This document shows, one piece after another, positions 1 through 50,469 of a stretch of 64,000 nucleotides of DNA; positions within the stretch are counted from its first letter, which is position 1; every line of letters begins with the position of its first letter. This DNA is from Stegostoma tigrinum (Eukaryota): NCBI RefSeq assembly GCF_030684315.1, contig NC_081400.1, positions 8,499,464 to 8,563,463 on the forward strand, given 5' to 3'. The translations under genes and the position numbers were made by a program. Under the pieces are notes generated by a model. The model saw nothing but the letters and a program-made list of their open reading frames with translations, ran no database searches and was not told the origin of the DNA.

Positions 1-1007
1 GCCTTCCTCTCCTCCGGGGGGGCTCGCCCCGCATTGCCCCTGCCAGCAACCTGGGCGTAGGTGGTCCCCCGCTGCAGGCATGCCCAAAGAGGTGGCCCGC
101 TTCCCCGCAAAGGTTGCAGCTTTTCTCTTGTGGGCAATCTTTTGCAAGGTGTTCCTCCTCGCTGCAGTTCTTGCAGATGGTGACTTTGCAGTCGGCCGCC
201 ACGTGGCCTGACCTATCACAGGCATGGCAGACTTTAGGTTGCCCTGCATAGGTCAGGTAGCCCTTGCTCCCGCCAATCGCGAAGCTGGACGGTGGGTGTA
301 CAATGTTCCTGTCCGCGCCCATCCTCAGCGTCACCTTGACCTGCCTCTTACTGGTCCAGATGCCAAAGGGGTCCATGATGTCAGTTAGGTCCCCTTCCAC
401 CTTCACGTACCTCCCAAGGAAGGTCACGACATCAACTGCTGGCACATGCGGGTTGTACATGTGTACAGTCACCATACGGCTCCTCTGCTCTGGCGTCACA
501 AACAACGGGACAGTGGTCAATACAGAGAGTGGGCCCTCACTTCCTTTCTCCTTGAAAACCTCCAGGAAGCGCTCGCAAAGCTTGGCACTCCTGAAGGTCA
601 TGTCGTAAAAACCTCCTCCTGGGAAATCCTGCAGGCAGTAAATGTCCGCAGCAGTGAACCCACAACAGTCCAACAGGACCCTCTTCATGAAGAAGGTGCG
701 GTCCACAGGTGCACCTTCATCCACTTTCTTCACGGAAACACGGATGGTGTTCCGGACCCCCTGACCTGGGGCACGAGCACTTGCCGCAGCCATCGTTGCA
801 GGTTGGCTGCTCCCCTGAACCAGCGTTAGGCCGAAGCCAGCATTAAGATCCACCGGTTGCAAGGGTGCACAGCCAACCCGACATCCTCCTTTCACCTCCA
901 ACACAGCACTCTCCTCCTCTCGGTCCACAAGAGAGTGGGTCTTTATTTTGTTCCAGATGTAAGCTGGTTCACCGAGCTTGAAGGTTTGTTCCCAGATGTT
1001 TTGTCAC
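1..1007 (-). mobile_element. Tx1-clade non-LTR retrotransposon, 5' portion (leader and start of ORF1); runs off the left edge
   Basis: Near-copy of about 6120-7128. Minus-strand ORF1 starts at ATG 793 (MAAASARAPGQGVRNTIRV...) and has CCHC knuckles (ICKNCSEEEHLAKDC). Confidence 0.9.
992..1007 (-). repeat. 16-bp target-site sequence GTGACAAAACATCTGG (copy 1)
   Basis: ccagatgttttgtcac on +, abutting the poly(T) tail at 1008. Identical at 1761-1776 and one mismatch at 7113-7128. Confidence 0.9.
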
Positions 1008-1760
1008 TTTTTTTTATTTGAAAAAATATACTTTATTCGTGAGATGTACAAAAAAAAACATATTTATAGACCTACCCAGTCATGCAAGCCGCTCCGGGTT
1101 ACCCAGGGGGTACGTTCACCAACTAAAGGAAAAAAACAAAACAAAGAAGAAAAAAAACAAAGCAAAGAAAATACCCCGGCAGTCGTCACCCCGCACAGTC
1201 CCCGTTGGCCCCCTGACCAGTTGGGGACGGCGCCAGCTGGGCCCAGTTACCAGATAGGGTTCTTTTTTCCTATTCTGGACGAGGGGTTTCATACCGTGGT
1301 CTTTCCCCACCGCGCCTTGGCGGCGGCTGCCCCAAGCTTTAGCGCATCCCTCAGCACGTAGTCCTGGACCTTGGAGTGCGCCAGTCTGCAACACTCGGTC
1401 AGGGTCAGTTCTTTCAGCTGGCAGACCAGCAAGTTGCGGGCATGCCAAAGAGCGTCTTTCACCGCATTGATGGTCCTCCAGGCGCAGTTGATGTTGGTCG
1501 CGGTGTGCGTCCCGGGAAACAGCCCGTAGAGCACGGAGTCCCGCGTCACGGAGCTGCTCAGGACGAACCTCGACAAATACCACTGCATCCCCCTCCAGAC
1601 CTCGTGCACGTAGGCACACTCCAGAAGGAGGTGATCAACAGTCTCGTCCCCCCCGCCCCCCCCGCAGCCACCTCGAGGGCAGCGTGCGGTGGCGCAGAGA
1701 TTCCGGGCATGCATAAAGGATCTCACTGGCAGAGCCCCTCTCACCGCCAGCCAAGCAATG
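1008..1760 (-). mobile_element. 5'-truncated Tx1-clade copy (ORF2 C-terminal zinc finger, 3' UTR, poly A)
   Basis: ORF 1289-1744 has CPRGGC...ETVDHLLLEC. AATAAA and poly(A) on the minus strand. Duplicates about 1777-2529. Bracketed by identical 16-mers. Confidence 0.92.
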
Positions 1761-1776
1761 CCAGATGTTTTGTCAC
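1761..1776 (-). repeat. 16-bp target-site sequence (copy 2), TSD of the truncated copy
   Basis: ccagatgttttgtcac lies between the truncation point (caagcaatg|) and the poly(T) of the full-length copy. Confidence 0.9.
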
Positions 1777-2064
1777 TTTTTTTTTATTTGAAAAAATATA
1801 CTTTATTCATAGAATGTACAAAAAATAAAACATTTATACACCTGCCCGGTCATGCAAGCCATTCCGGGTTACCCAGGGGTACGTACACCAACTAAAGGAA
1901 AAAAAAACAAAACAGAGAAAACAAAACAAAAACACAAAGCAAAGAAACCGCCCCGGCAGTCGTCACCCCGCACAGTCCCAGTTGGCCCCCTGACCCGTTG
2001 GGGAAGGCGCCAGCTGGGCCCAGTTACCAGATAGGATTCTTTTCCCTTTTCTGGACGAGGGGGC

Positions 2065-5000
2065 TCATACGGTGGTCTTTCCCCACCGCGCCTTGGCGGC
2101 GGCTGCCCCAAGCTTTAGCGCGTCCCTCAGCACATCGCCCTGGACCTTGGAGTGCGCCAGTCTGCAACACTCGGTCGGGGTCAGTTCTTTCAGCTGGCAG
2201 ACCAGCAAGTTGCGGGCAGACCAAAGAGCGTCTTTCACCGCATTGATAGTCCTCCAGGCGCAGTTGATGTTGGTCTCGGTGTGCGTCCCCGGAAACAGCC
2301 CGTAGAGCACGGAGTCCCGCGTCACGGAGCTGCTCGGGACGAACCTCGACAAATACCACTGCATCCCCCTCCAGACCTCCTGCGCATAGGCACACTCCAG
2401 AAGGAGGTGATCAACAGTCTCGTCCCCCCCCCGCAGCCACCTCGAGGGCAGCGTGCGGTGGTGCAGAGATTCTGGGCATGCATAAAGGATCTCACTGGCA
2501 GAGCCCCTCTCACCGCCAGCCAAGCAATGTCCTTGTGCTTGTTTGAAAGTTCTGGCAATGAGGCATTCTGCCAAACGACTTTGGCAGTCTGCGTGGGGAA
2601 CCACACGACGGGATCCACCCTCTCCTTTTCCCGAAGGGTCTCGAGAATACTACGTGCTGACCACTGCCTGACGGCCTTGTGGTCAAAGGTGTTTCCTTTC
2701 AAAAATTTCTCCACGAAGGACAGGTGGTACGGAATGGTCCAACTACTCGGAGCGTTCCGCGGCAACGAGGCCAGGCCCATCCTTCGCAACAGAACCTCAG
2801 TAAGTAGTGACACTTGGTGTTTGCGTACTGAGGATCTACGCACAGCTTGATGCAGCCACACACAAAGGTAGCCGTCAGGGCGAGGGTGGCGTTCGGTACG
2901 CCCTTTCCCCCATTTCCCAGGTCTTTGTACATGGTATCTCTGCGGACCCAGTCCATCCTCGACCCCCAAATGAAGTGGAAGATGGCCCGGGTGACCGCAG
3001 CGGCGCAGGTCCAGGGGATAGGCCAGGCCTGCGCCACATACAACAGTACCGAAAGCCCCTCGCACCTGACAACCAGGTTCTTACCCACGATGGAGAGCGA
3101 CCGGAGCGTCCACCTGCCCAGCTTCTGCTTAAATTTGGCGATACGCTCCTCCCAAGTCTTAGTGCATGCCCCAGCTCCACCAAACCAAACACCCAGCACC
3201 TTCAGGTAGTCTGTCCTGACGGTGAAGGGGATGAAGGAGCGGTCGTCCCAGTTCCCGAAGAACATGACCTCGCTCTTACCCCTAATGACTTTGGCACCCG
3301 AGGCCAGTTCAAACTGGCCGCAGATGTCCAACAGCCTACGCACCGACCGACGATCGGTGCAGAAGACGGCGACATCATCCATGTACAGGGAGGTCTTGAC
3401 CTGAAGGCCTCCGCTGCCTTGGATAGTCACGCCCTTCAGGCTCACGTCCTTCCTGATGGAGGCGGCGAAGGGCTCCACGCAGCACATGAACAAGGCAGGA
3501 GAGAGCGGGCAGCCCTGCCTGACTCCAGATCTAACAGGAAAACTGTCTGATTCCCACCCGTTGATCGAGACTGCGCTAACGATGTTGGCGTAGAGCAGCC
3601 GGATCCAATTACGGATGCCCTCCCCGAACCCCAATTTGGAGAGGACGTCCCTCATGTAAGCATGAGAGACCCTGTCGAAGGCCTTCTCCTGGTCCAGGCT
3701 GACGAGGCAGGTGTCCACCCGCCTGTCCTGTACGTAGGCGATCATATCCCTGATGAGCGCGAGGCTCTCAGCGATCTTCCTGCCCGGCACAGCACAGGTT
3801 TGGTCAGGGTGAATCACTGACTCCAGGACAGACCTGACCCGGTTGGCAATGACCTTGGCCAGGATTTTGTACTCCACATTCAAAAGTGAAATGGGACGCC
3901 AATTCTTAATTTCTTCCCTCTCCCCCTTCCTCTTGTAAATGAGGGTGATGATGCCCTTCCTCATGGACTTGCACATTTCCCCTGCCCGAAGCGCACTATC
4001 GTACACCTCCAGCAGGTCCTGGCCGACCAGGCCCCACAGAGCAGAATACAGCTCGACCGGTAAGCCGTCACTTCCAGGAGTCCTATTCCTCTGCAAGGAC
4101 TTGAGGGCTCTGGCCAGCTCGTCCAGGGATATCGGCCGGTCCAGCCACTCCCTTGTGCCGTCGTCTAAGACCTCCGTGATAGACGACAGGAACAACTCGG
4201 AGGCCGTGCTGTCCGTGGGCTTCGTGTCGTACAGTCCAGCATAGAAGGATCTGCTGATCCTCAAAACGTCAGGCCGAGACAACATCACCGAGCCGTCGTC
4301 CTCCTTCAGCCGGCTAAGCACAGAGCTCTCTTTGTGCACCTTCTGAAAGAAGAAACGCGAGCACGTCTCGTCCTGCCCCATGGAGCGAACCCTGGACCGG
4401 AAGATTATCCTGGAGGCCTCCGCGGCGAAGAGCGAGGCTTGCTGGCCCCTCACCTCGCGGAGGTCCTCCGTGACATCGACCCCCATCAACTGCAGAAGGA
4501 GCAGCTTCTGCACCCTTTTCTGGAGTCGCGACAGCTTTCCCCGCCTCTCTCTTGCCTTCTGAACACCCTTGAGGACAAAGAACCTCTTGATGTTCTCCTT
4601 CACCGTCTCCCACCAGTCGCCTGGAGACTCAAAGAGGGGTTTAACGGTTCTCCAACCGGCGTACTCCCTCTTAAGCTCCTCAACGTTCTCTGGGGTCAAC
4701 AGAGTCGTGTTGAGCTTCCACGTCCCCTTGCCGGCCGGCTGGTCGTCCTGTAAGTGACAGTCGGCCAACAGGAGGCAGTGGTCAGAGAAGAACACCGGCT
4801 CGACACCGGTGGATCTGACCGAGAACGTCCGTGACACAAACAGGAAGTCTATCCTTGAGCGGATAGACCCGTCTGGCCGCGACCAGGTGTACCTCCGCTG
4901 CGCTCCGTCTGCAGGGGTGCTGAAGACGTCGAGCAGCTCGGCGTCCTTCACCGTGCCCATCAGGAATCTGGACGTGACGTCCAGTTGAATCCCCCCACCC

Positions 5001-5476
5001 GCTGTCCCCACGCCGGATCTTCCATCTGCATCAATGATGCAGTTGAAGTCTCCGCCTAGGATGACCGGCCTGGACGTAGCCAGCAGGGATGGAAGCCGCT
5101 GCAGGACGGCCAACCGCTCACTCCGTACCGCTGGGGCGTACACGTTGATCAGCCTCAGGGGAGCATTCCTGTAGGTGATGTCAGCCACTAGGAGGCGCCC
5201 CCCCACCACCTCCTGAACTTGAGAGATGGTGAAGCTGTGCCCCCGCAGCAGAATAGCCAGGCCCGAGGAGCGACAGTCGTTCCCCCCCGACCAGATCGAA
5301 GGCCCACAGGTCCAGGCGCCGGACCATTTCCCGTAACTGCCGAGGTGCGGTATCCCGCACTCCTGCAGAAACAGGAGGTCCGCCTTGATGGTGGTCAGGT
5401 AGGCCAACGTGGACACACATCTCGCGGTTGACTTCTTGACGCTGCGCACATTAATGCTCGCAATTCGTACCCCCAT
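2065..5476 (-). pseudogene. Tx1 ORF2: APE endonuclease, reverse transcriptase and C-terminal zinc finger; frameshifts near 2790 and 2425
   Basis: IASINVR, LFLQE, GGDFN, SRIDF and SDHC (APE). WRPISLLN, DQEKAFD, GVRQGCPLSP and YMDD (RT). The C-terminus continues in ORFs 2322-3065 and 2065-2604. Confidence 0.93.
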
Positions 5477-6914
5477 TGTGGGCAGTGACCACAGTACCCT
5501 CCCCAAGTCCAAGGTCCAGCCCCTCCATCTGTCCCTTCATGCCCATTGCCCGGGCTAACTGCTGGACGCTCTCTGGGCTCAGGAAACCATCTGTGCTGCC
5601 TTCCGGGTGGCATCCCCCCGTCAGGGGTGCGGAGGCAGGAGGGTCCGGCTCCGGATCAGGCTGGGGACGTTCTGTTTCCTCCTTCCCGCCTGGAAGTTCC
5701 GGGGGGCCCTCCAGTGCTCCAGCAGCACTTGACTGGGTGTCGGAGTGAGCCTCAGGAAGCCTCCCGTCACCTGGAAGCGGGGCGCTGCTTTCCTTCCCCC
5801 TCGAGACCTTTAACTTCTGCTTCGGGGGGGCCCTCTCCGAATCCTCCTCGTCAGAGGAGCTCTTATAGCCCCCCTGTAGCTGCCTCTTCCCGCCTGATTG
5901 TTGCGGTTCCTGGGCCTGTCGACGCACCTTCCTCCTCGCTTTCCGGACTGTTGTCCACTCCCCTGGGTCGCCTGTCGCCGCCTCCATTGGCTCCAGGTTG
6001 TCGGGGGGGATTGGAGCCTGCAGGGGTGCTTTGCTGGCCTCGGGCCCATCCTGCAGGGCTGGGCCCTCCTGCACGGCCTGGCCCTCCTGCACATTAGTGG
6101 GGTCCTTGCTGGGCCCTGGTGCCTTCCTCTCCTCCGGGGGGGCTGGCCCCGCATTTCCCCTGCCGGCGACCTGGGCGTAGGTGGTACCCCGCCGCGGGCA
6201 TGCCCTACAGAAGTGGCCCGCTTCCCCACAAAGGTTGCAGCTTCTCTCTCGTGGGCAATCCTTTACAAGGTGTCCCTCCTCCCTGCACTACCTGCAGATG
6301 GTGGCTTTGCAGTCGGCCGCCATGTGACCTGACCTACCACAGGCATGGCAGACTTTAGGTTGCCCTGCATAGGTCAGGTAGCCCCTGCTCCCGCCGATCG
6401 CGAAGCTGGACGGTGGGTGTGCGACATTCCCGTCTGCGCCCATCCTCAGCGTCACCTTGACCTGCCTCTTACTCGTCCAGATGCCAAAGGGGTCCACGAT
6501 GTCAGTTAGGTCCCCTTCCACCTTCACGTACCTTCCGAGGAAGGTCAGGACATCAACTGCTGGCACATGCGGGTTGTACATGTGTACAGTCACCATACGG
6601 CTCCTCTGTGCTGGCATCACAAACAGTGGGACAGCGGTCAATACAGAGAGTGGGCCCTCACTTCCTTTCTCCTTGAAAACCTCCAGGAAGCGCTCGCAAA
6701 GCTTGGCACTCCGGAAGGTCACATCGTAAAAACCTCCTCCGGGGAAATCCTGCAGGCAGTAAATGTCCGCAGCAGCAAACCCACAACAGTCCAACAGGAC
6801 CCTCTTCACGAAGAAGGTGCGGTCCACAGGTGCACCTTCATCCACCTTCTTTACAGAAACACGGATGGTGTTCCGGACCTCCTGACCTGGGGCACGAGCA
6901 CTCGCTGCAGCCAT
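5451..6914 (-). pseudogene. Tx1 ORF1: gag-like protein with three CCHC knuckles; premature TAG at 6288-6290
   Basis: CHACGRSGHMAADC, CR*CREEGHLVKDC, CNLCGEAGHFCRAC. ORFs 6288-7049 and 5451-6092 share a frame. The copy at 1-793 has AAC (N) at the stop position. Confidence 0.85.
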
Positions 6915-7128
6915 CGTTGCAGGTTGGCTGCTCCCCTGAACCAGCATTAGGCCGAAGCCAGCATTAAGATCCACTGGTCGCAAGGGTGCACAGCCAACCC
7001 GACGTCCTCTTTTCACCTCCAAGACAGCACTCTCGTCCTCTCGGTCCACAAGAGAGTGGGTCTTTATTGTGTTCGAGATGTAAGCTGGTTCACTGAGCTG
7101 TAAGGTTTGTCCCCAGATGTTTTGACAC

Positions 7129-9005
7129 CATTCTAGGTAACAGCATCAGTCAGCCTCCGACGAAACACTGGTGTTATGTCCTGCTTTCTATTTATCTGGT
7201 TAGGTTTCCTTGGGTTGGTGATGTCATTTCCTGCGTTGGTGATGTCATTTCCTGTTCCTTTTCTCAGAGGGTGGCAGATTGATTTGGAGCCAATGTGTTT
7301 GTTGATGGAGTTCCGGTTGGAATGCCATGCTTCTCGGAATTCTCGTGCGTGTCTCTGTTTGGCTTGTCCTAGGATGGATGTGTTGTCCCAATCAAAGTGG
7401 TGTCCTTCCTCATCTGTATGTAAGGATCCTAGTGATGGTGGTCATGTTGTTTTGTGTCTAGTTGATGTTCATGTATCCTGGTGGCTAGCTTCCTGCCAGT
7501 TTGTCCAATGTAGTGTTTGTCACAGTTCTTGCAAGGTATTTTGTAGATGACGTTCGTTTTGTCTGTTGTCTGTATAGGGTCTTTTAAGTTCATTAGCTGT
7601 TGTTTTAGTGTGTTGGTGGGTTTGTGGGCTACCCTGATGCCAAGAGGTCCGAGTAGTCTGGCAGTCATTTCGCAAATGTCTTTGATGTAGGGGAGAGTGG
7701 ATATGGTTTCTGAGCCCGTTTAGTCTGTTTGTTTGGGTTTATTGCCGAGGAATCGGTGAACTGTGTTCATAGGGTACCCATTCTTTTGGATACGCTGTAT
7801 CGGTGATTTTCCTCTGCTCTGCGTAGTTCCTCCGTGCTGCAGTGTGTGGTGGCTCATTGGAATAATGTTCTAATGCAGCTTCGTTTGTGGGTGTTGGGAT
7901 GGTTGCTCCTGTAGTTCAGTGTTTGGTCCGTATGTGTTGTTTTCCTGTAGACGCTGGTTTGAAGTTCCCCATTGGCTGTTCGCTCTACTGTGACATCTAG
8001 GAATGGCAGTTTGTTGTTGTTTTCCTCCTCTTTTGTGAATGTTATGCCAGTAAAGGGTATTATTGATGGTCTTGAAGGTTTCCTCTAATTTGTTTTGTTT
8101 AGTGATGACAAAGGTATCATCCACATAGCGGACCCAAAGTTTGGGTTGGATGATTGGCAGAGCTGTTTGTTGGAGTCTCTGCATTACTGCCTCTGCTAAG
8201 AACCCTGATATCGGAGATCCCATGGGTGTACCGTTGGTTTGTCTGTAGGTTTTGTTATTGAAAATGAAGTGGGTGGTGAGGCATAGGTCCACTAGCTTGA
8301 TGATGTTGTCCTTGCTGATGAGGTTGGTGGTGTCTGGTGTATGTGTCTTCGGTTCTTCTAATAGTGTAGTCAGTGTTTCTTTGGCCAGGTTGATGTTGAT
8401 GGATGTGAACAGGGCTGTTACGTCAAAGGAGACCATTATTTCATCCTCTTCTATCTTGGTGTCTTTGGTGTTCAGGAATTCTTGGGTGGAGCGAATGGAG
8501 TGGCGGGAGTCTTCTACTAGGTGTTTTAGTCTTTGGTGTAGTTCCTTGGCTAATCTGTAGGTTGGTGTTCCAGGTAGCGACACTATGGGCCTGAGGGGGG
8601 TTTCTGGTTTGTGAATTTTTGGTAGTCCATAGCAGCGTGGTGTGTTGGATCCATCTGGTTTCATTTTTTGGAAGCCTCTCTTGTTTAATTCTCCAGATGT
8701 TTGAAGTTTTTTGAGTAAGGCTGTGATTCGGTTCTCTAGTTGTGGGGTTGGCTCTATCGCCACCTGTTGGTAAGTGTTGGTATCTGCAAGCAGAGCGTTC
8801 GCTTTCTCAATGTAGTCTGTTCGGTTTCAGATGACTGTCAAGCGTCCTTTGTCTGCAGGTAGGATAACGATGTTTTTATCTTTTTTGAGTCCTTTTAGGG
8901 CTTTCCTTTCTTGTGTATTGAGTGGGTTTTCTTCCTTTTTCCTGCTTAGTGTTGGTGCGACTGTCTGTCTGATGGTTTGCTGGGTTTCTTCTGTGAGTTT
9001 GTTTA
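7129..9005 (-). mobile_element. Penelope-like element (RT and GIY-YIG), left arm of an inverted structure
   Basis: ORF 7870-8763: YGLPKIHK, SFDVTALFTSI, GTPMGSPISGFLA, RYVDDTF. ORF 7429-7668: NVIYKIPCKNCDKHYIGQTGRKLATRIHEH. Confidence 0.93.
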
Positions 9006-9667
9006 TTTCCTCAGCAATAAACCCAAACAAACAGGCAAAACGGGCTCAGAAACCATATCCACTCTCCCCTACATCAAAGACATTTCCGAAATAACTGCCA
9101 GACTACTCAGACCTCTTGGCATCAGGGTAGCCCACAAACCCACCAACACACTAAAACAGCAGCTAATGAACTTAAAAGACCCTATACAGACAACAAATAA
9201 AACGAACGTCATCTACAAAATACCTTGCAAGAACTGTGACAAACACTACATTGGACAAACTGGCAGGAAGCTAGCCACCAGGATACATGAACATCAACTA
9301 GACACAAAACAACATGACCCACTATCATTCGTATCCTTACATACAGATGAGGAAGGACACCACTTTGATTGGGACAACACATCCATCCAAGGACAAGCCA
9401 AACAGAGACACGCATGAGAATTCCTAGAAGGATGGTATTCCAACCGGAACTCCATCAACAAACACATTGGCTCCAAATCAATCTACCACCCTCTGAGAAA
9501 AGGAACAGGAAATGACATCACCAACCCAAGGAAACCTAACCAGATAAATAGAAAGCGGGACATAACACCAGTGTTTCGTCGGAGGCTGACTGATGCTGTT
9601 ACCTAGAATGGTGACGAAACGTCTGAAAACGAACCTTCCAGCTCAGCGAGCAAACTCACGTCCAGAA
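9006..9667 (+). mobile_element. Penelope-like element, inverted right arm (GIY-YIG region and 3' terminus)
   Basis: Near-identical inverted copy of about 7129-7752. ORF 8977-9417 has the GIY-YIG motifs. Confidence 0.92.
9581..9640 (+). ncRNA. Minimal hammerhead-ribozyme-like motif in the Penelope terminus
   Basis: CTGATGC (9590-9596; consensus CUGAnGA), stem II gttacc/ggtgac, GAAAC (9616-9620), then GTC. ggagg/ccttcc could form stem I. Minimal hammerheads in Penelope termini are established. Confidence 0.7.
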
Positions 9668-10399
9668 GACTGTTAGTGTCTTAACTGTTTTTGCCAAATC
9701 GATTCATGGATATAATTCTGGGAATGCAAAATTGTTCTATGACAATGTAGTCACTTGAATAGACATATCTTCCTGTTGAGCTAAAAGATTGAAACAAGGT
9801 ATCATTGAAACATGCACAATTTTGAAGATGCTGATCATCGGTTATGCTAGGAGAATGTTTCCCCAGACAAAGTCGCAATCTCAGAACAATAAAACATCAA
9901 AAACTGAGATCAGGGCCTATTTCTTGGCTTGGTTTTTGAGGATAAATGGTATTCTGCACTTCAGAAGTTGGGATCTTAGCCAATTAATTATATGTTAAGG
10001 GCCATTTAGTTATCTGTACAGAGTGAATTATTAAAATTTTGGTCATGTCTTTATTTGAAATATGTCTATAAATAGCATATCTATTCCTATTCTTCAGAAA
10101 TACATCCTTCTTGTAATTGTAAAGGGGTCAGGCAAAAGAGAGGTTTGAGAATCAGCATGAGAACGTTAAACACTAGATATTGTTCAAAAAAACTGGCTCA
10201 ACAGATTCAAGAACAGCTTCTTCCAGCAGTTATCACACTTATGAACGGACTTCTCATATATTAAATTTGATAATTCTCTAAACTTTCTCTGTAGCTGCAA
10301 TGCTAAAGTCTGCATTCTGTGCTCATACCCTGATGTAATTGTGCCAGTGTGACTTATCTGGGACAAAACAAATGTCTCTAGTGTGCAAAAATAAATGTA

Positions 10400-43917: not shown

Positions 43918-45506
43918 GACATGAGTAAGAAAAGGTTAGATGGACTTGAGATTGGTATGACAGGTCGCACAACATCGAGGGCCGAAGGGCCTGTACTGTG
44001 CTGTAATGTTCTATGTTCTATGTTCTATACTTTCCAACAACCAGCTTAAAACTATGACCCCTCGTGCTAGCCATTTCTGCCCTGGGAAATAGTCTCTGGC
44101 TATCAACTCTATCTATGCCTCTCATTATCTTGTATACTTCAATTAGGTCCCCTCTCCTCCTCCTTTTCTCCAATGAAAAGAGACCGAGCTCAGTCAACCT
44201 CTCTTCATAAGATAAGCCGTCCAGTCCAGGCAGCATCCTGGTAAACCTCCTCTGAACCCTCTCCAAAGCATCCACATCTTTCCTATAATACGTCGACCAG
44301 AACTGGACGCAGTATTCCAAGTGCAGTCTAACCAAAGTTTTATAGAGCTGCAACAAGATCTCACGACTCTTAAACTCAATCCCCCTGTTAATGAAAGCCA
44401 AAACACCATATGCTTTCTTAACAACCCTGTCCAATTGGGTGGCCATTTTAAGGGATCTATGTATCTGCACACCAAGATCCCTCTGTTCCTCCACACTGCC
44501 AAGAATCCTATCCTTAATCCTGTACTCAGCTTTCAAATTCGACCTTCCAAAATGCATCACCTCACATTTATCCAGGTTGAACTCCATCTGCCACCTCTCA
44601 GCCCATCTCTGCATCCTGTCAATGTCCCGCTGCAGCCTACAACAGCCCTCTATACTGTCAACGACAACTCCAAACTTTGTGTCGTCTGCAAACTTGCTGA
44701 CCCATCCTTCAATCCCCTCATCCAAGTCATTAATAAAAATTACAAACAGTAGAGGCCCAAGGACACAGCCCTGTGGAACCCCACTCACCACTAACTTCCA
44801 GGCAGAATATTTTCCTTCTACTACCACTCGCTGTCTTCCGTTGGCCAGCCAATTCTGTATCCAAACAGCTAAGTTCCCCTGTATCCCATTCCTCCTGACC
44901 TTCTGAATGAGCCTACCATGGGGTACCTTATCAAATGCCTTACTGAAGTCCATATACACCACATCCACAGCTCGACCCTCATTAACCTTTCTAGTCACAT
45001 CCTCAAAGAACTCGATAAGGTTTGTGAGGCATGACCTGCCCCTCACAAAGCCGTGTTGACTGTATTTGATCAAGCCATGCTCTTCCAGATGGTCATAAAT
45101 CCTAACCCTCAGAATCCTTTCTAACACCTTGCAGACGACAGACGTGAGACTTACTGGTCTGTAATTGCCGGGGATTTCCCTATTTCCTTTCTTGAAGAGA
45201 GGAATTACATTTGCCTCTCTCCAGTCCTCAGGTACGACTCCAGTGGAGAGCGAGGATGCAAAGATCTTCGCAAGTGGCGAAGCAATTGCATTTCTCGCTT
45301 CCCAAAGCAGCCGAGGACAAATCTGCTCCGGGCCTGGTGACTTGTCAATCTTAATGTTTGACAAAATATTCAGCACATCAGCTTCCTCTATCTCTATCCA
45401 TTCCAGCATGCACACCTGCTCTTCAAAGGTTTCATTCACTACAAAGTTCGTTTCTTTCGTAAAGACAGAAGCAAAACACTCATTTAGGGCTTCCCCTACC
45501 TCCTCA
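43918..45506 (-). mobile_element. Young CR1 insertion with an open RT region (ORF 44018-45532) and an inverted 3'-terminal piece (about 43918-44020, +)
   Basis: NYRPVSLTSV, DFSKAFDKVPH, GVPQGCVLGPLLF and KFADDTK in a 504-aa ORF without stops. Confidence 0.93.
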
Positions 45507-46919
45507 GAAGCCTGTGAAGCCTGATAGCTCAATTTGCTTTTGTGGAGATTTTAAGCAAACAGTAAACCACTTCTCACAGCTGGAACAATACACAATCCCT
45601 CCCTTACAGGACTTGTACACAAAGTTAGGTGGGGGGGGGGGGGTGAGTGGGGTGAGGCGGGGGAATTCCTGTAAATTATGGAGCTGTACATGAACCATGC
45701 CTGCTTGCAATTGGGGCTGGATGAGGAGCCCTAGAAGTAAGCAACAATTAACATCTATATGGGTTTGTATTAATATACAAGACTACCAGTTAGAGCATTA
45801 TTAGGCTGCGTCCTTTTCCATTGCACTATGTAGAACATTTTACAGGCTACCCCAGTTGCCATTTATCTGGGTAATGTGCTAATAACCAAGAAGACCAATT
45901 CGGGGTTCTTGGAGAATTTGAATATAGTGCTTAAACATTTCTCCCAGGTGAGATTAAGCCTTAGAAAGGAAAATTATGTGGTCCAAACACCCAACGTCCT
46001 CTACTTAGGGTATAGAGTAAGCAAGACCGGGTTACACTCATTGGAGGTTAAAGTGAGGGTAGTCAAAAGAGCCCCGCTCCCACGTCTGTACCAGAACTTA
46101 GGTCTTTCCTCGGGTTAGTGAATTATTATAGAAAAGTCATGCATAATTTGGCCTCCATCTTGGCTTACACTTGCTATTGATAAAAGATCACCCTTTGAAG
46201 TGGTCGCAAAGCCAAGTAGTAGCCTTGAGGGGAGTAAAGAAACAGCTATCATCGTCTAAGATGTTGACCAACAATGATCCGAAGCAAGAGGTAGCATTGA
46301 CATATGGTGCCTCCCTATACGGTATTGGGTTAGTATTGGCTCACTGTTGGCCCAATGGAAAGGAACGCCTAATAACGTATGCTTCGCAAGCTTTGGTTGA
46401 TGGTGAACGCAAATCTGCGCATATAGAGAAGGAAGATTTGGCACTTATCTTTGATGTGAGGATGCTCCACCAGTATATTTTCGGTCAAGAATTTGTCATA
46501 GTAACAGATCACAAACTCCTGTTAGGGCTACTGAAGGACAAAAAGGCACTGCCACCCATATTTTCCGTTAGAATTCAGTGGAGGGCCCTTATTCTCAACG
46601 CGTACAAGTACAAGCTAGAATACTGTCCAGGAAGACAAGTAACTAATGTGGATGCCCTGGGCCGCCTCCCATTGGTAGATACCGGACCAGCAGTGCTTCC
46701 CCTGGAACAGTTGTTCTGTATTTAAACTTCCTGACACTCTTCTGGTCCCCGCTGACAATATCTGACTGTGGACACAAAATGATCTTATCCTCACAAAACT
46801 AAAACAGTTGGTGGCAATGAGGGAGGAAGAAGATCCACAACAAACAGGACTGAAACCTTTATGGACCCTGCAAGAGCAGATGATCGTACAGGATACTTGC
46901 CAAAAGCATAAAGAAAAGC

Positions 46920-48834
46920 AGTCCCGGCATATACCAGAGAGAAGAGAATTCCCTCTCTGTATCATAGAGAACATCTGTCCCTGCCTATAGAATCATGAAC
47001 AGCAGTATCTGCCTATGGCATAGACAACCTCAGTTCCTGCCTATATTATGGTAAACAGCAGTTTGTTTGTATACTGAAGAGAACAGCGCCCTTACCTATA
47101 TCATAGAGAACAGCAGTCATTTTCTGTATCATAGACAACAGCAGCCCCTGCCTAAATTATACAGAACAGTAGTCCTTGTCTATATCATAGAAAACAGTGA
47201 TCCCTATCTATATCATAGAGAATGGCAGTCCCTGCCTATATCGCAGCGGACAGCAGTCCCTGTCTGTATTTTTGAGAACAGCAGTCCCTGTGGATATTAA
47301 AGAGAATGGCAGTCACTGTGTATATCACTGGGAAAAGCAGTCCTTGTCTTTCTGATAAGGAATGGCAGTCCCTGTCTACAGCATAGAGAACAGCAGCCAC
47401 TGTGTACATCACAAAGAAGAGCAGATTCTGTTCAGAACATCTATCTCTGCCTATATCACAGAGAAAAGCAGCCCCTGCCTATTTCATAGAGAACAGCAGT
47501 CCCTGCCAATATCATAGAGGACAGCAGTCTACGTGATATCATGGAGGACATCAGTCCCTGTCTGGTGAACAGTATGACCAGTGTATATTACAGAGAACAG
47601 CCTTCCTGTCTATATCATGAAAAATAGCAGCCACTGCCTATATTATAGAGAACAGCAGTGCTTTCTTATTGCACAGACAACATCAGTCCCTGACTATATC
47701 ACAGAGAAGAGCAGTCCCTGTATCTATTACATGGAATAGCAGTTGCTGTGTGGATGGGAGAGACATCAGTCCTGATCTACATTAGAGAGAACCACAGTAC
47801 CTGTCTACATAGAATGAACAGCAATCCCTACCGGTATCATAGCAAACAGCAGTCCCTGCCTATATCATAGAGAACAGGAGTCCCTGCCTTTATCATGGAG
47901 AGCAGAAGTTTCTGGCTATATCATAGAGAACAGGAGTCCCTGCTTATATTATCGGCAACAGGAGTCCCTGAGGTTGTAGACATGCTTGCCAAACTGGTGA
48001 GTTTGGTTGCAAACATTTTGTCATACCTACTGGTATCATAGAGAACTGCAGTCACTGCATTTATTATAATGAACAGCAGTCGCTGTCAATATGATAGTGA
48101 ACAGCACTTGCTGTGCATATGACTGAGAACAGCCTTCCCTCTCTATATTATCGAGAACAGCAGTCCTTGTGTATATTACAGAAAATGGCATTCACTGTAC
48201 ACCATAGGAAGAGCAGTCGCTGCATACATCACAGAGAACAGGAGACCCTGTTTAGAATATATATAACTGGAGTCCCTGTCTATTTCATAGACAACTGCAG
48301 TCCCTGTCTATATTATAGAGAACAGCAGTCCTGGCCTGTGTGAGAGGGAACTGTAGTCCCTCTGTATATCATAGAGAACAGCAGTTACTCTGTATATCAT
48401 AGGTAACAACAGTTGCTGAGTATATCAGAGAGAACAGCAGACCATGTATGTACTATACAGAATCGCAATACCTGTCCGTATCATAGCGAACAGCAGACCT
48501 TGAGTATAGCAAAGAGAACAGCAGTGTCTGCCTGTAGCATAGAGAACAGCAGTCCCCACACATATCGTAGCGAACAGCAGTCCCTGCCTATATCATGGAG
48601 AGCAGCAGTCCCTGCCTACATCATAGCAAACAGCAGTCCTGCCTATATCATAGCGAACAGCAGTCCCTGCCTATATCATAGCGAACAGCAGTCCTGCCTA
48701 TATCATAGCGAACCGCAGTCCCTGCCTATATCATAGCGAACAGCAGTCCCTGCCTATATCATAGAGAACAGGAGTCCCTGCCTATACCATGGAGAGCAAC
48801 AGTCTCTGCTTATATCAACGGCAACAGGAGTCCC
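46920..48834 (+). repeat. Degenerate 28-bp tandem satellite (TATATCATAGAGAACAGCAGTCCCTGCC)
   Basis: Units are most homogeneous at about 48560-48790 and diverge leftwards. Confidence 0.9.
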
Positions 48835-49600
48835 TGAGGTTGTAGACATGCTCGCCGAACTGGCGAGTTTGGTTGCAAACATTTTGCCACCCTGCCAGGT
48901 AACATCATCAGTGCACCCCTAGTGAAACATCAACATCTGTCCCGCTTGTTATTTTTGTGCCTTGGTTTGCTGGGGTGATTTGCATTACTTCCGGTTTCGT
49001 TTCTCTGTGGTTTGTACACAGGATCAAATTCAATGTGTTTGTTAATGGAGTTGCAGTTGGAATACCAGACCTCCAGGAATTGCCTGCATGTCTCTGTTTG
49101 GCTTATGTGATTATTGATATGCTTTCCCAGTCAAATTTGTGTCCCTCATTGTCCATGACTAGTGAGGCAAGTAAGAATTAGTCATGTCTCTTGGTGGCTA
49201 GTTGATGTTCATGTATCTGCATAGTCAATTTTCTCCCTGTTTGGCATTTGTAATGTTTCCTCACAGTCCTTGCATGGAATTTTGTATAATACCCTAGTTT
49301 TGCCAATTTTTGGTATGGGATCCTTGACGTTAAGCAATAGGTGTCACAAGGTGGTTGCCAGTTTGTAGGCTAAACTGATACTGAGGAGTCTATGTAGTCT
49401 TGTGGCCTTCTCTGAAGACCACAACAGGAAGGCACAACACTACCAAAATGACTTATCACCCTACCATATGTCAAGGACATTTCAGAGATGACCACAAGAC
49501 TCCTTAGGCCCCTAGGTATCAGAATGGCCCACAAACCAACAACCACCTACAACAGCTATTGGCGAATGTAAGGGATCCCAGATCCAAAACAGGCAAAACT
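48835..49600. mobile_element. Older Penelope fragments in inverted arrangement (- to about 49420, then +); terminus resumes at about 50210-50322
   Basis: LPYVKDISEMTTRLLRPLGIRMAHKPT matches ORF 8977-9417. Confidence 0.8.
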
Positions 49601-50209
49601 GTTGTTCCCTGTGCTACAGGCAGGGACTGTTGTTCTCTATGATTTGGAGAGGAAATGCTGTTCTCTGTAATATACACAGGCACTGCTGTTCTCTATAACA
49701 TTCACAGGGAATGTTGTTCTCTATAATATACATAAGGACCATTGTTTTGTACAATATAGACAGGTACTGCCAATTTCTACGATATAGTCAGAGAATCCTG
49801 TTGCCTATGATACAGACAAGGACTCCTGTGATATAGACAAGGACTTCTGCTGCTGATGAGATAGGCAGGGACTACTAGTCTCCACAATGTAGGCAGGGAC
49901 TGCTGTTCTTTATGATACAGATGGGGAGTGCTGTTCCTTACAATATAGACAAGGACTGCTATTCTGTACAATATAGAAAGGGACTATAGTTCAAAAGACT
50001 GTTGTTGTCGATGACTCCTGTTACCTATGATAAGAGCCAGGGATTCTGCTTGCCAATGACATGCGGAGGGACTCCTGTTGCCGATGACATAAGCGGGGAT
50101 TCCTGTTCTCTATGATATAGGCAGGGACTGATGTTCTCAGGAGCACACAAAGTGTCTGCTGTTCTTTATGATATAGACAGGGACTACTGTTCCCTCTGAT
50201 ATAAGCAGC
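49601..50209 (-). repeat. Same 28-bp satellite in the opposite orientation
   Basis: gcagggactgctgttctctatgatata-like units on +. Confidence 0.85.
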
Positions 50210-50469
50210 ACAAGTCAACAACACTTCACAGGAGGCTCCACAGCACTGAGGGTGTCACCTAGTGAGGGGAAAAAAACATCTGCTATCAAACCTCCCGGCT
50301 TGGCAAACACACCAACATCTACAGTCTGTAGAGAGGGGATTTCAAATCTCCTCAGTTCAAAGGAACGACTCAAAGGTGGCTGGCCATAGCCAGTGTACCA
50401 TTACAAGTATGGTGACTTAGTGATGGGATACCAACTTCTGTGCAGTTATTTCAGGTCTAGAGTGCAGAC

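Follow-up and report, generated by a model that had tools for sequence, protein, structure and literature searches.

A 64,000-nucleotide stretch of Stegostoma tigrinum DNA (the window) holds an array of LINE copies in one arm of a Penelope-like element. The first 58 nucleotides of the 5'-complete copy resemble the Penelope end in which the array lies. To which of the two elements does this leader belong, how does it come to lie at the junction, and what does it mean for the hammerhead motif at the insertion site? Positions are counted from the nick: +1 is the first G of GTGAC past the nick (window position 7128, copy A, minus strand) and -1 is the preceding base. Hammerhead positions carry their standard names, in part after the available text of PMC4209133.

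Table 1. Position of the elements, leaders and promoter-like motifs in the window.
Feature	Position	Strand	Remarks
Tx1 copy C, 5' part	1..1007	-	continues ~4.3-4.35 kb left of the window
Leader of Tx1 copy C	950..1007	-	older subfamily
Tx1 copy B	1008..1760	-	5'-truncated
Target-site duplication before copy B, 15-16 bp	1761..1776	-	copied from the copy C leader
Tx1 copy A	1777..7128	-	5'-complete, frameshifted; ORF1, ORF2 and poly(A)
Leader of Tx1 copy A (+1..+58)	7071..7128	-	diverged copy of the Penelope end
Penelope-like element, occupied arm	7129..8990	-	RT; GIY-YIG
Penelope -38..-1	7129..7166	-	5' half of the hammerhead (stem I 5' strand, core, stem II); putative 5' arm of the Tx1 RNA
TATA-like ATAAATAG	7188..7195	-	~29 nt ahead of the -38 peak (Penelope 5' ends); putative promoter
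Two CAGGAAATGACATCA repeats	7219..7254	-	within the >100 nt retained by occupied sites
Inverted unoccupied Penelope arm	9007..9670	+	GAAACGTC at the empty target, 9611-9625

On the minus strand, the Penelope arm is followed by Tx1 copies A, B and C, a poly(A) and a Penelope end. ORF1 of copy A starts at the ATG at 6914 and contains ZCCHC3-type RNA-binding domains and zinc knuckles, while its ORF2 comprises an endonuclease, a reverse transcriptase (RT) and a zf-RVT domain. In the leader of copy A, hammerhead G12 and G16.2 are both A, and +1..+15 takes the place of the 5' target-site duplication. Copy B is of an older type and lies behind copy A. Copy C terminates beyond the window in a poly(A), followed by the remaining Penelope end, which is intact (GACGAAACGTCTGAAAAC / GAAACGTC). 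Both local Penelope arms have CTGATGC in place of CTGATGA. The CAGGAAATGACATCA repeats are presumably ETS/CRE-like. Elsewhere, the window contains 28-bp minisatellite arrays in opposite orientations (46890-48900 and 49590-50220), an older second Penelope remnant (near 48850-49560) and a further reverse transcriptase ORF on the minus strand (44018-45550).

Judged by its domains and its target-specific insertion, the LINE fits the Tx1 type. It has the two-ORF layout, with a nucleic-acid-binding ORF1 carrying CCHC knuckles and an ORF2 with APE endonuclease, RT and a C-terminal zinc motif. Insertion is sequence-specific, with a duplication and a poly(A) end (1443 genome matches to poly(A)-plus-target, control 0). 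The endonuclease region matches amphibian and fish proteins that carry no clade names (best 44-45%); the fugu protein Q76B34 is reportedly a Tx1 of Kojima and Fujiwara. One protein match comes from Heterodontus, in line with a shark-like host. The host element has the RT (E 1.7e-12), pLTR and inverted arms of a Penelope-like element, together with a C-terminal GIY-YIG at E 0.001, which is below Pfam's cut-off. About 1,300 natural Tx1 insertions are estimated for the genome, occupying roughly 10% of the Penelope target sites (also an estimate). Most copies are 5'-complete (28/40) and plain 5' truncation is uncommon (1/40). Several incomplete copies are apparently joined to antisense Tx1, i.e. 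5' inversions (loci L296, L297, L311, L317 and L319). Three independent 5' truncations (window 1760, L030 and L322) have a truncation point at ~nt 4600 of Tx1 in common. Tx1 is also present in both arms of inverted Penelope pairs, often as different subfamilies (L004, L005, L014, L017, L023, L034, L038, L046, L049 and L058).

The first-pass annotation, made from the window alone, had assigned the leader to the LINE because the leaders of copies A and C seemed closer to each other than to the local Penelope end. Both leaders lie where it had placed them and are identical at 52 of 58 nucleotides; compared with the unoccupied local Penelope end (9611-9668), copy A matches at 41/58 and copy C at 42/58. 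In a genome search with the leader plus 5' UTR, the best 40 of 1630 candidates span the full 189 nt at 97-100%, a set biased toward full matches. Leader and upstream Penelope are also present in 45 of 58 loci chosen solely by their 3' junction. Thus, the leader belongs to Tx1, and a full insertion leaves a target-like 5' junction every time. The replacement of GAAAC/GTC by AAAAC/ATC in the leader, likewise noticed before, is confirmed. Since the Penelope end past the array is intact (GACGAAACGTCTGAAAAC), these changes arrived with the element and are not due to local decay.

The leader had also been read as a mimic of the Penelope terminus. Against this, +16..+30, the distal strand of stem I, is the fastest-changing portion of the 5' region (changes at 5/15 sites in 4 events, compared with 7/156 in the UTR). 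A conserved leader hairpin was considered and rejected, as it is present in older leaders only. Read in the ORF1 frame, the leader and 5' UTR of both window copies lack a stop for ~70 codons (7124-6914, minus strand); L144 has one. On the whole, the first-pass interpretation stands as regards the Tx1-owned leader, the target-like junction and array growth there, and falls as regards mimicry, the cause of the array and the use of the ribozyme. It overlooked that the element-borne stretch continues upstream of the nick.

The nick is fixed between AATG and GTGAC or one base earlier, with a duplication of 15-16 bp. Upstream of it, -18 is the sole marker that is not a CpG. CTGTTGA (-21..-15; A6U of the hammerhead core) has 765 exact matches in the genome, and Tx1 comes next in 29 of the first 30; among 11,346 matches to CTGATGA, it does so in 1 of the first 30 (p 1.5e-14). 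In 14 unoccupied partner arms beside T-type junctions, counted by eye, -18 is A in 13, deleted in one and T in none. As these empty arms of the same Penelope insertions are without T, the T at -18 comes with the insertion. It is found in all Tx1 subfamilies and is scattered across a tree of 48 copies built from the first 2.2 kb of the body (18 changes, shuffled mean 16.2).

The 45 loci with leader and upstream Penelope yield 42 in-register junctions. The element-type base is present at -18 in 19, at +6 in 12, at +11 in 35, at +16 in 39 and at +42 in 41 of these; another subset of junctions has T at -18 in 24/51. There is no simple gradient, +6 being element-type less frequently than -18. Among the first 60 loci listed, 42 are full copies whose 3' end borders on Penelope, and in these the two duplications were compared. 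Their 15-mers are identical in only four, and the mismatches have a direction: at +11, A in the 5' and G in the 3' copy occurs 26 times and the reverse twice, and at +6 the ratio is 15 to 4. These one-directional differences indicate that most of what looks like a duplication comes from the element itself. In T-type junctions there is also a weak excess of C-to-T at -39/-34/-31 (59:20 compared with 37:28 in plain ends, p 0.03); -39 is one base outside the RNA start proposed below.

Comparison of these genomic copies indicates that the element-borne stretch includes sequence upstream of the nick, from at least -18 to +58. Read from DNA copies, target variants upstream of the nick that are carried on the element are passed to new junctions, as in R2. 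At the window locus itself, -18 (position 7146) is the target-type A, and local changes at -15 and -23 match the other arm. The A and these two private changes place the switch in the window junction between -15 and +6; because the changes are common to both arms, -38..-1 was not overwritten here. A Penelope reading frame opens at the ATGs at -18/-15 in stem II (window 7143-7090, minus strand). In typical Tx1 junctions, the T at -18 abolishes the first ATG and a C-to-T at +37 makes a stop, leaving an upstream frame of 17 codons. The T does not serve to open the ORF1 frame; this was considered and rejected, as the next stop comes immediately.

The upstream boundary of this stretch may lie at -38. 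Plain Penelope 5' ends peak there (11 of the first 30 rows, about 9 events), and related Penelope families have TATAAAT 30 nt before this point. A palindrome lies at this peak, where about half of the ends are fold-backs; as a transcription start, the peak is suggestive only. Tiny head-to-head Penelope palindromes centred at -38 are found at L069/L070 and L353-L382, with 188 exact matches. According to the available text of PMC3846280, the pLTRs of rotifers have a TATA box plus initiator.

Tx1 is found almost exclusively where Penelope sequence farther upstream is kept. An upstream Penelope flank of at most 100 nt is present in 1 of 122 Tx1 junctions (an internal deletion) and in 24 of 102 plain ends, the latter count including paired arms, which are not independent. 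None of 45 Penelope arms cut at -38 holds Tx1. Among arms cut at -38, T at -18 is present in 1 of 100 listed, and this is a plain arm. This bias may reflect capture of the promoter by Tx1, with recognition of upstream DNA or protein binding there as an alternative. Two other RNA starts were rejected. Breaks of T-type junctions at -23..-28 suggested a 5' end near -27, yet plain Penelope has hairpin deletions of the same kind (L332). A fixed start farther upstream is at odds with breakpoints past -110, which are scattered.

Probably, Tx1 lands at one hammerhead position and brings a mutated copy of its target into the 5' junction, likely by way of an RNA made from the Penelope promoter and R2-like annealing. 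The RNA would start at a predicted position of about -38 and carry the target from ~-38 to +58. The end of the cDNA would then pair with the target strand upstream of the nick, much as 28S sequence is used in R2. Patchy mismatch repair of the cDNA/target heteroduplex would retain the element's base in about half of the junctions at -18, in under a third at +6 and in over 80% from +11 on. An A:A mismatch at -18 would be resolved about evenly, low transfer at +6 (12/42) would fit repair of a CpG G:T mismatch towards G, and high transfer at +11 (35/42) may reflect trimming near the top-strand end. The ribozyme would be kept inactive, since cleavage at +13 would strip the cap and the pairing arm. 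The +16..+58 part would likely be what is left of a founder junction. It would pass from copy to copy, diverge from the target and occasionally cause loss of the element through recombination.

In the Penelope ends, all parts of a minimal hammerhead are found (CUGAnGA, an extra base, stem II, GAAAC-GUC and stem I). It is complete in 40 of 63 plain ends, with a stem II probability of 0.99. Among 12 rows assigned to other families, nine show the pairing -24/+16 (U-A, G-C, A-U and G-U); one of the 12, L174, belongs to a Tx1 junction. In the version carried by the element, A6U and G16.2A are present, often together with G12A or a change of GAAAC to TGATT/GGATT, the last in a second Tx1 lineage; another lineage retains G16.2. 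CpG transitions account for two of the three core changes, and these could be drift. GG at +16/+17 would extend proximal stem I and not weaken it.

Tentatively, the LINE may be a promoter parasite that is selected for knocking out the Penelope ribozyme. It would land 38 nt behind the start, only where the promoter is intact, and rewrite the core, and copies with a dead core would found the next generation. That T is kept in all subfamilies despite its loss in ~50% of insertions favors such selection; a single long-lived master locus, on the other hand, would retain T unselected. Less probable is the same annealing with a neutral dead hammerhead, which would hitch-hike in one or a few master loci, the RNA being driven by an internal Tx1 promoter that starts upstream in the flank. 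The CpG origin of two core changes and the ladder-like tree with few well-supported forks (9/45 starred) are consistent with neutrality, as is the weakness of minimal hammerheads (PMC4209133 and PMC11167929, available text). The Penelope hammerheads of metazoans cleave poorly in vitro according to the available text of PMC4209133, and among the reads of an anole element none was found to stop at the cut site (PMC11167929); there is possibly little to disarm. Neutrality accounts less well for the presence of T in all subfamilies although about half of new insertions lose it, for a second lineage that breaks GAAAC in its own way (TGATT/GGATT), for the hot spot in the distal strand of stem I (5/15 sites versus 7/156 in the UTR) and for the dependence on upstream sequence (1/122 versus 24/102; 0/45).

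A further reading of the tandem arrays is that the leader is retained as a decoy target that enables stacking. This is unlikely. The leader comes next after 18 of 100 listed Tx1 3' junctions (by eye), more than the estimated target occupancy of roughly 10%, and the arrays indeed grow at the 5' junction, as claimed in the first-pass annotation: in all six array pairs with enough sequence, the youngest subfamily is more similar to the upstream copy than to the other, with L099 nearly tied (93.8 versus 93.6). The annotation had gone on to explain the array by the leader, but 5'-truncated, leaderless copies are re-hit as well (window copy B; L241, L242 and L251 among 30 loci). Truncated copies were re-hit at 3/30 and not re-hit at 2/30 loci, too few to fix a rate. 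Furthermore, divergence of the leader is fastest beside the duplication, which also speaks against a decoy. The upstream flank and the 15-bp duplication suffice for re-insertion.

Copies may be lost again at these sites. The exact chimeric motif of leader followed by Penelope has 29 matches in the genome. Among 20 examined, 11 come after a Tx1 poly(A) and nine lie inside Penelope, more than 1.5 kb from any Tx1 body (two of them with T at -18). From their sequence, the chimeric motifs look like deletions between the leader and the downstream target, akin to solo-LTR formation, with conversion as a less likely origin. Leader patches in Penelope ends with no element behind (L095, L102, L136, L114, L299 and L203-L222) are likely footprints of excision or conversion.

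The first-pass annotation had proposed a working hammerhead that is completed by the leader and releases the Tx1 5' end from a Penelope read-through transcript, in the manner of the R2 ribozyme. This is largely refuted and very improbable. Stem II is intact, stem I can be drawn in some junctions, and the core is intact in 6/51 junctions of one subset. In the unbiased set, though, it is intact in only 3 of 42 Tx1 junctions (6/92 when pooled), compared with the 40 of 63 plain Penelope ends, and in four dead-type junctions that were folded the pairing probability of stem I is at most 0.02. With so few intact cores, the junction hammerhead does not match the active ribozyme that sets the 5' end in R2. 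No Rfam ribozyme, hammerhead included, matches the window at E 1. Cleavage at +13 would in addition remove -18, +6 and +11, yet new insertions inherit all three; because bases upstream of +13 are inherited, a cut there is not the normal route. Hardly credible at all is a T form that represents a Penelope subfamily preferred by Tx1 or owes a later spread to ectopic gene conversion: T does occur in a few plain Penelope ends (L050, L169; 2/80), but none of the 14 partner arms has it, the Penelope polymorphism at -71 is not homogenised in T-type junctions and the 3' duplication copies are ordinary Penelope.

The preferred reading, annealing of a target-derived RNA end, has its closest counterpart in the R2 of the earwig. 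The available text of PMC3774820 describes a target-derived RNA 5' end, uniform junctions formed through a cDNA/target heteroduplex and propagation of junction variants; all junctions there have a 22-bp downstream 28S duplication with three substitutions. R2 targets rDNA and makes use of an active HDV-like ribozyme of its own, whereas the Tx1 described here has an APE-type endonuclease and an ORF1, a retroelement target, a 58-nt duplication and the mostly broken ribozyme of its host in the 5' end. Sequence-specific insertion into mobile elements is shared with the target-specific Tx1 clade, i.e. Tx1L (Tx1D), Keno (U2), Tx1-Mar, Tx1-9_AMi and Tx1-8_Crp (PMC4494074, available text). That text also reports a duplication of about 16 bp and sequential tandem insertion for SINEU-3 and raises flank-driven transcription as a possibility for target-specific Tx1; within it, no Penelope target, target-derived leader or upstream overwriting is described. 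The minimal hammerheads of Penelope pLTRs, as given in the available text of PMC4209133, likewise have a long stem II, an extra base after A9 and a palindromic 15.2-16.2; in contrast to these, the motif is here a landing site and the element-borne version is mutated. No Penelope-targeting Tx1 was found in the literature searched, which did not extend to Repbase and supplements, so that a prior Repbase entry is possible; the available text of PMC5753468 and of bioRxiv 2026.07.22.740005 offers nothing that bears on the question.

Completion of the 5' junction is poorly known for LINEs other than R2. With an estimated ~1,300 insertions that have marked mismatches at known distances from the nick, this element lets one map how the cDNA of an APE-type LINE pairs with its target and how the mismatches are repaired, and its site specificity and mostly 5'-complete copies make it useful for such study. 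If the core is kept dead by selection, this would be indirect evidence that metazoan Penelope hammerheads, as treated in the available text of PMC4209133 and PMC11167929, cut in vivo.
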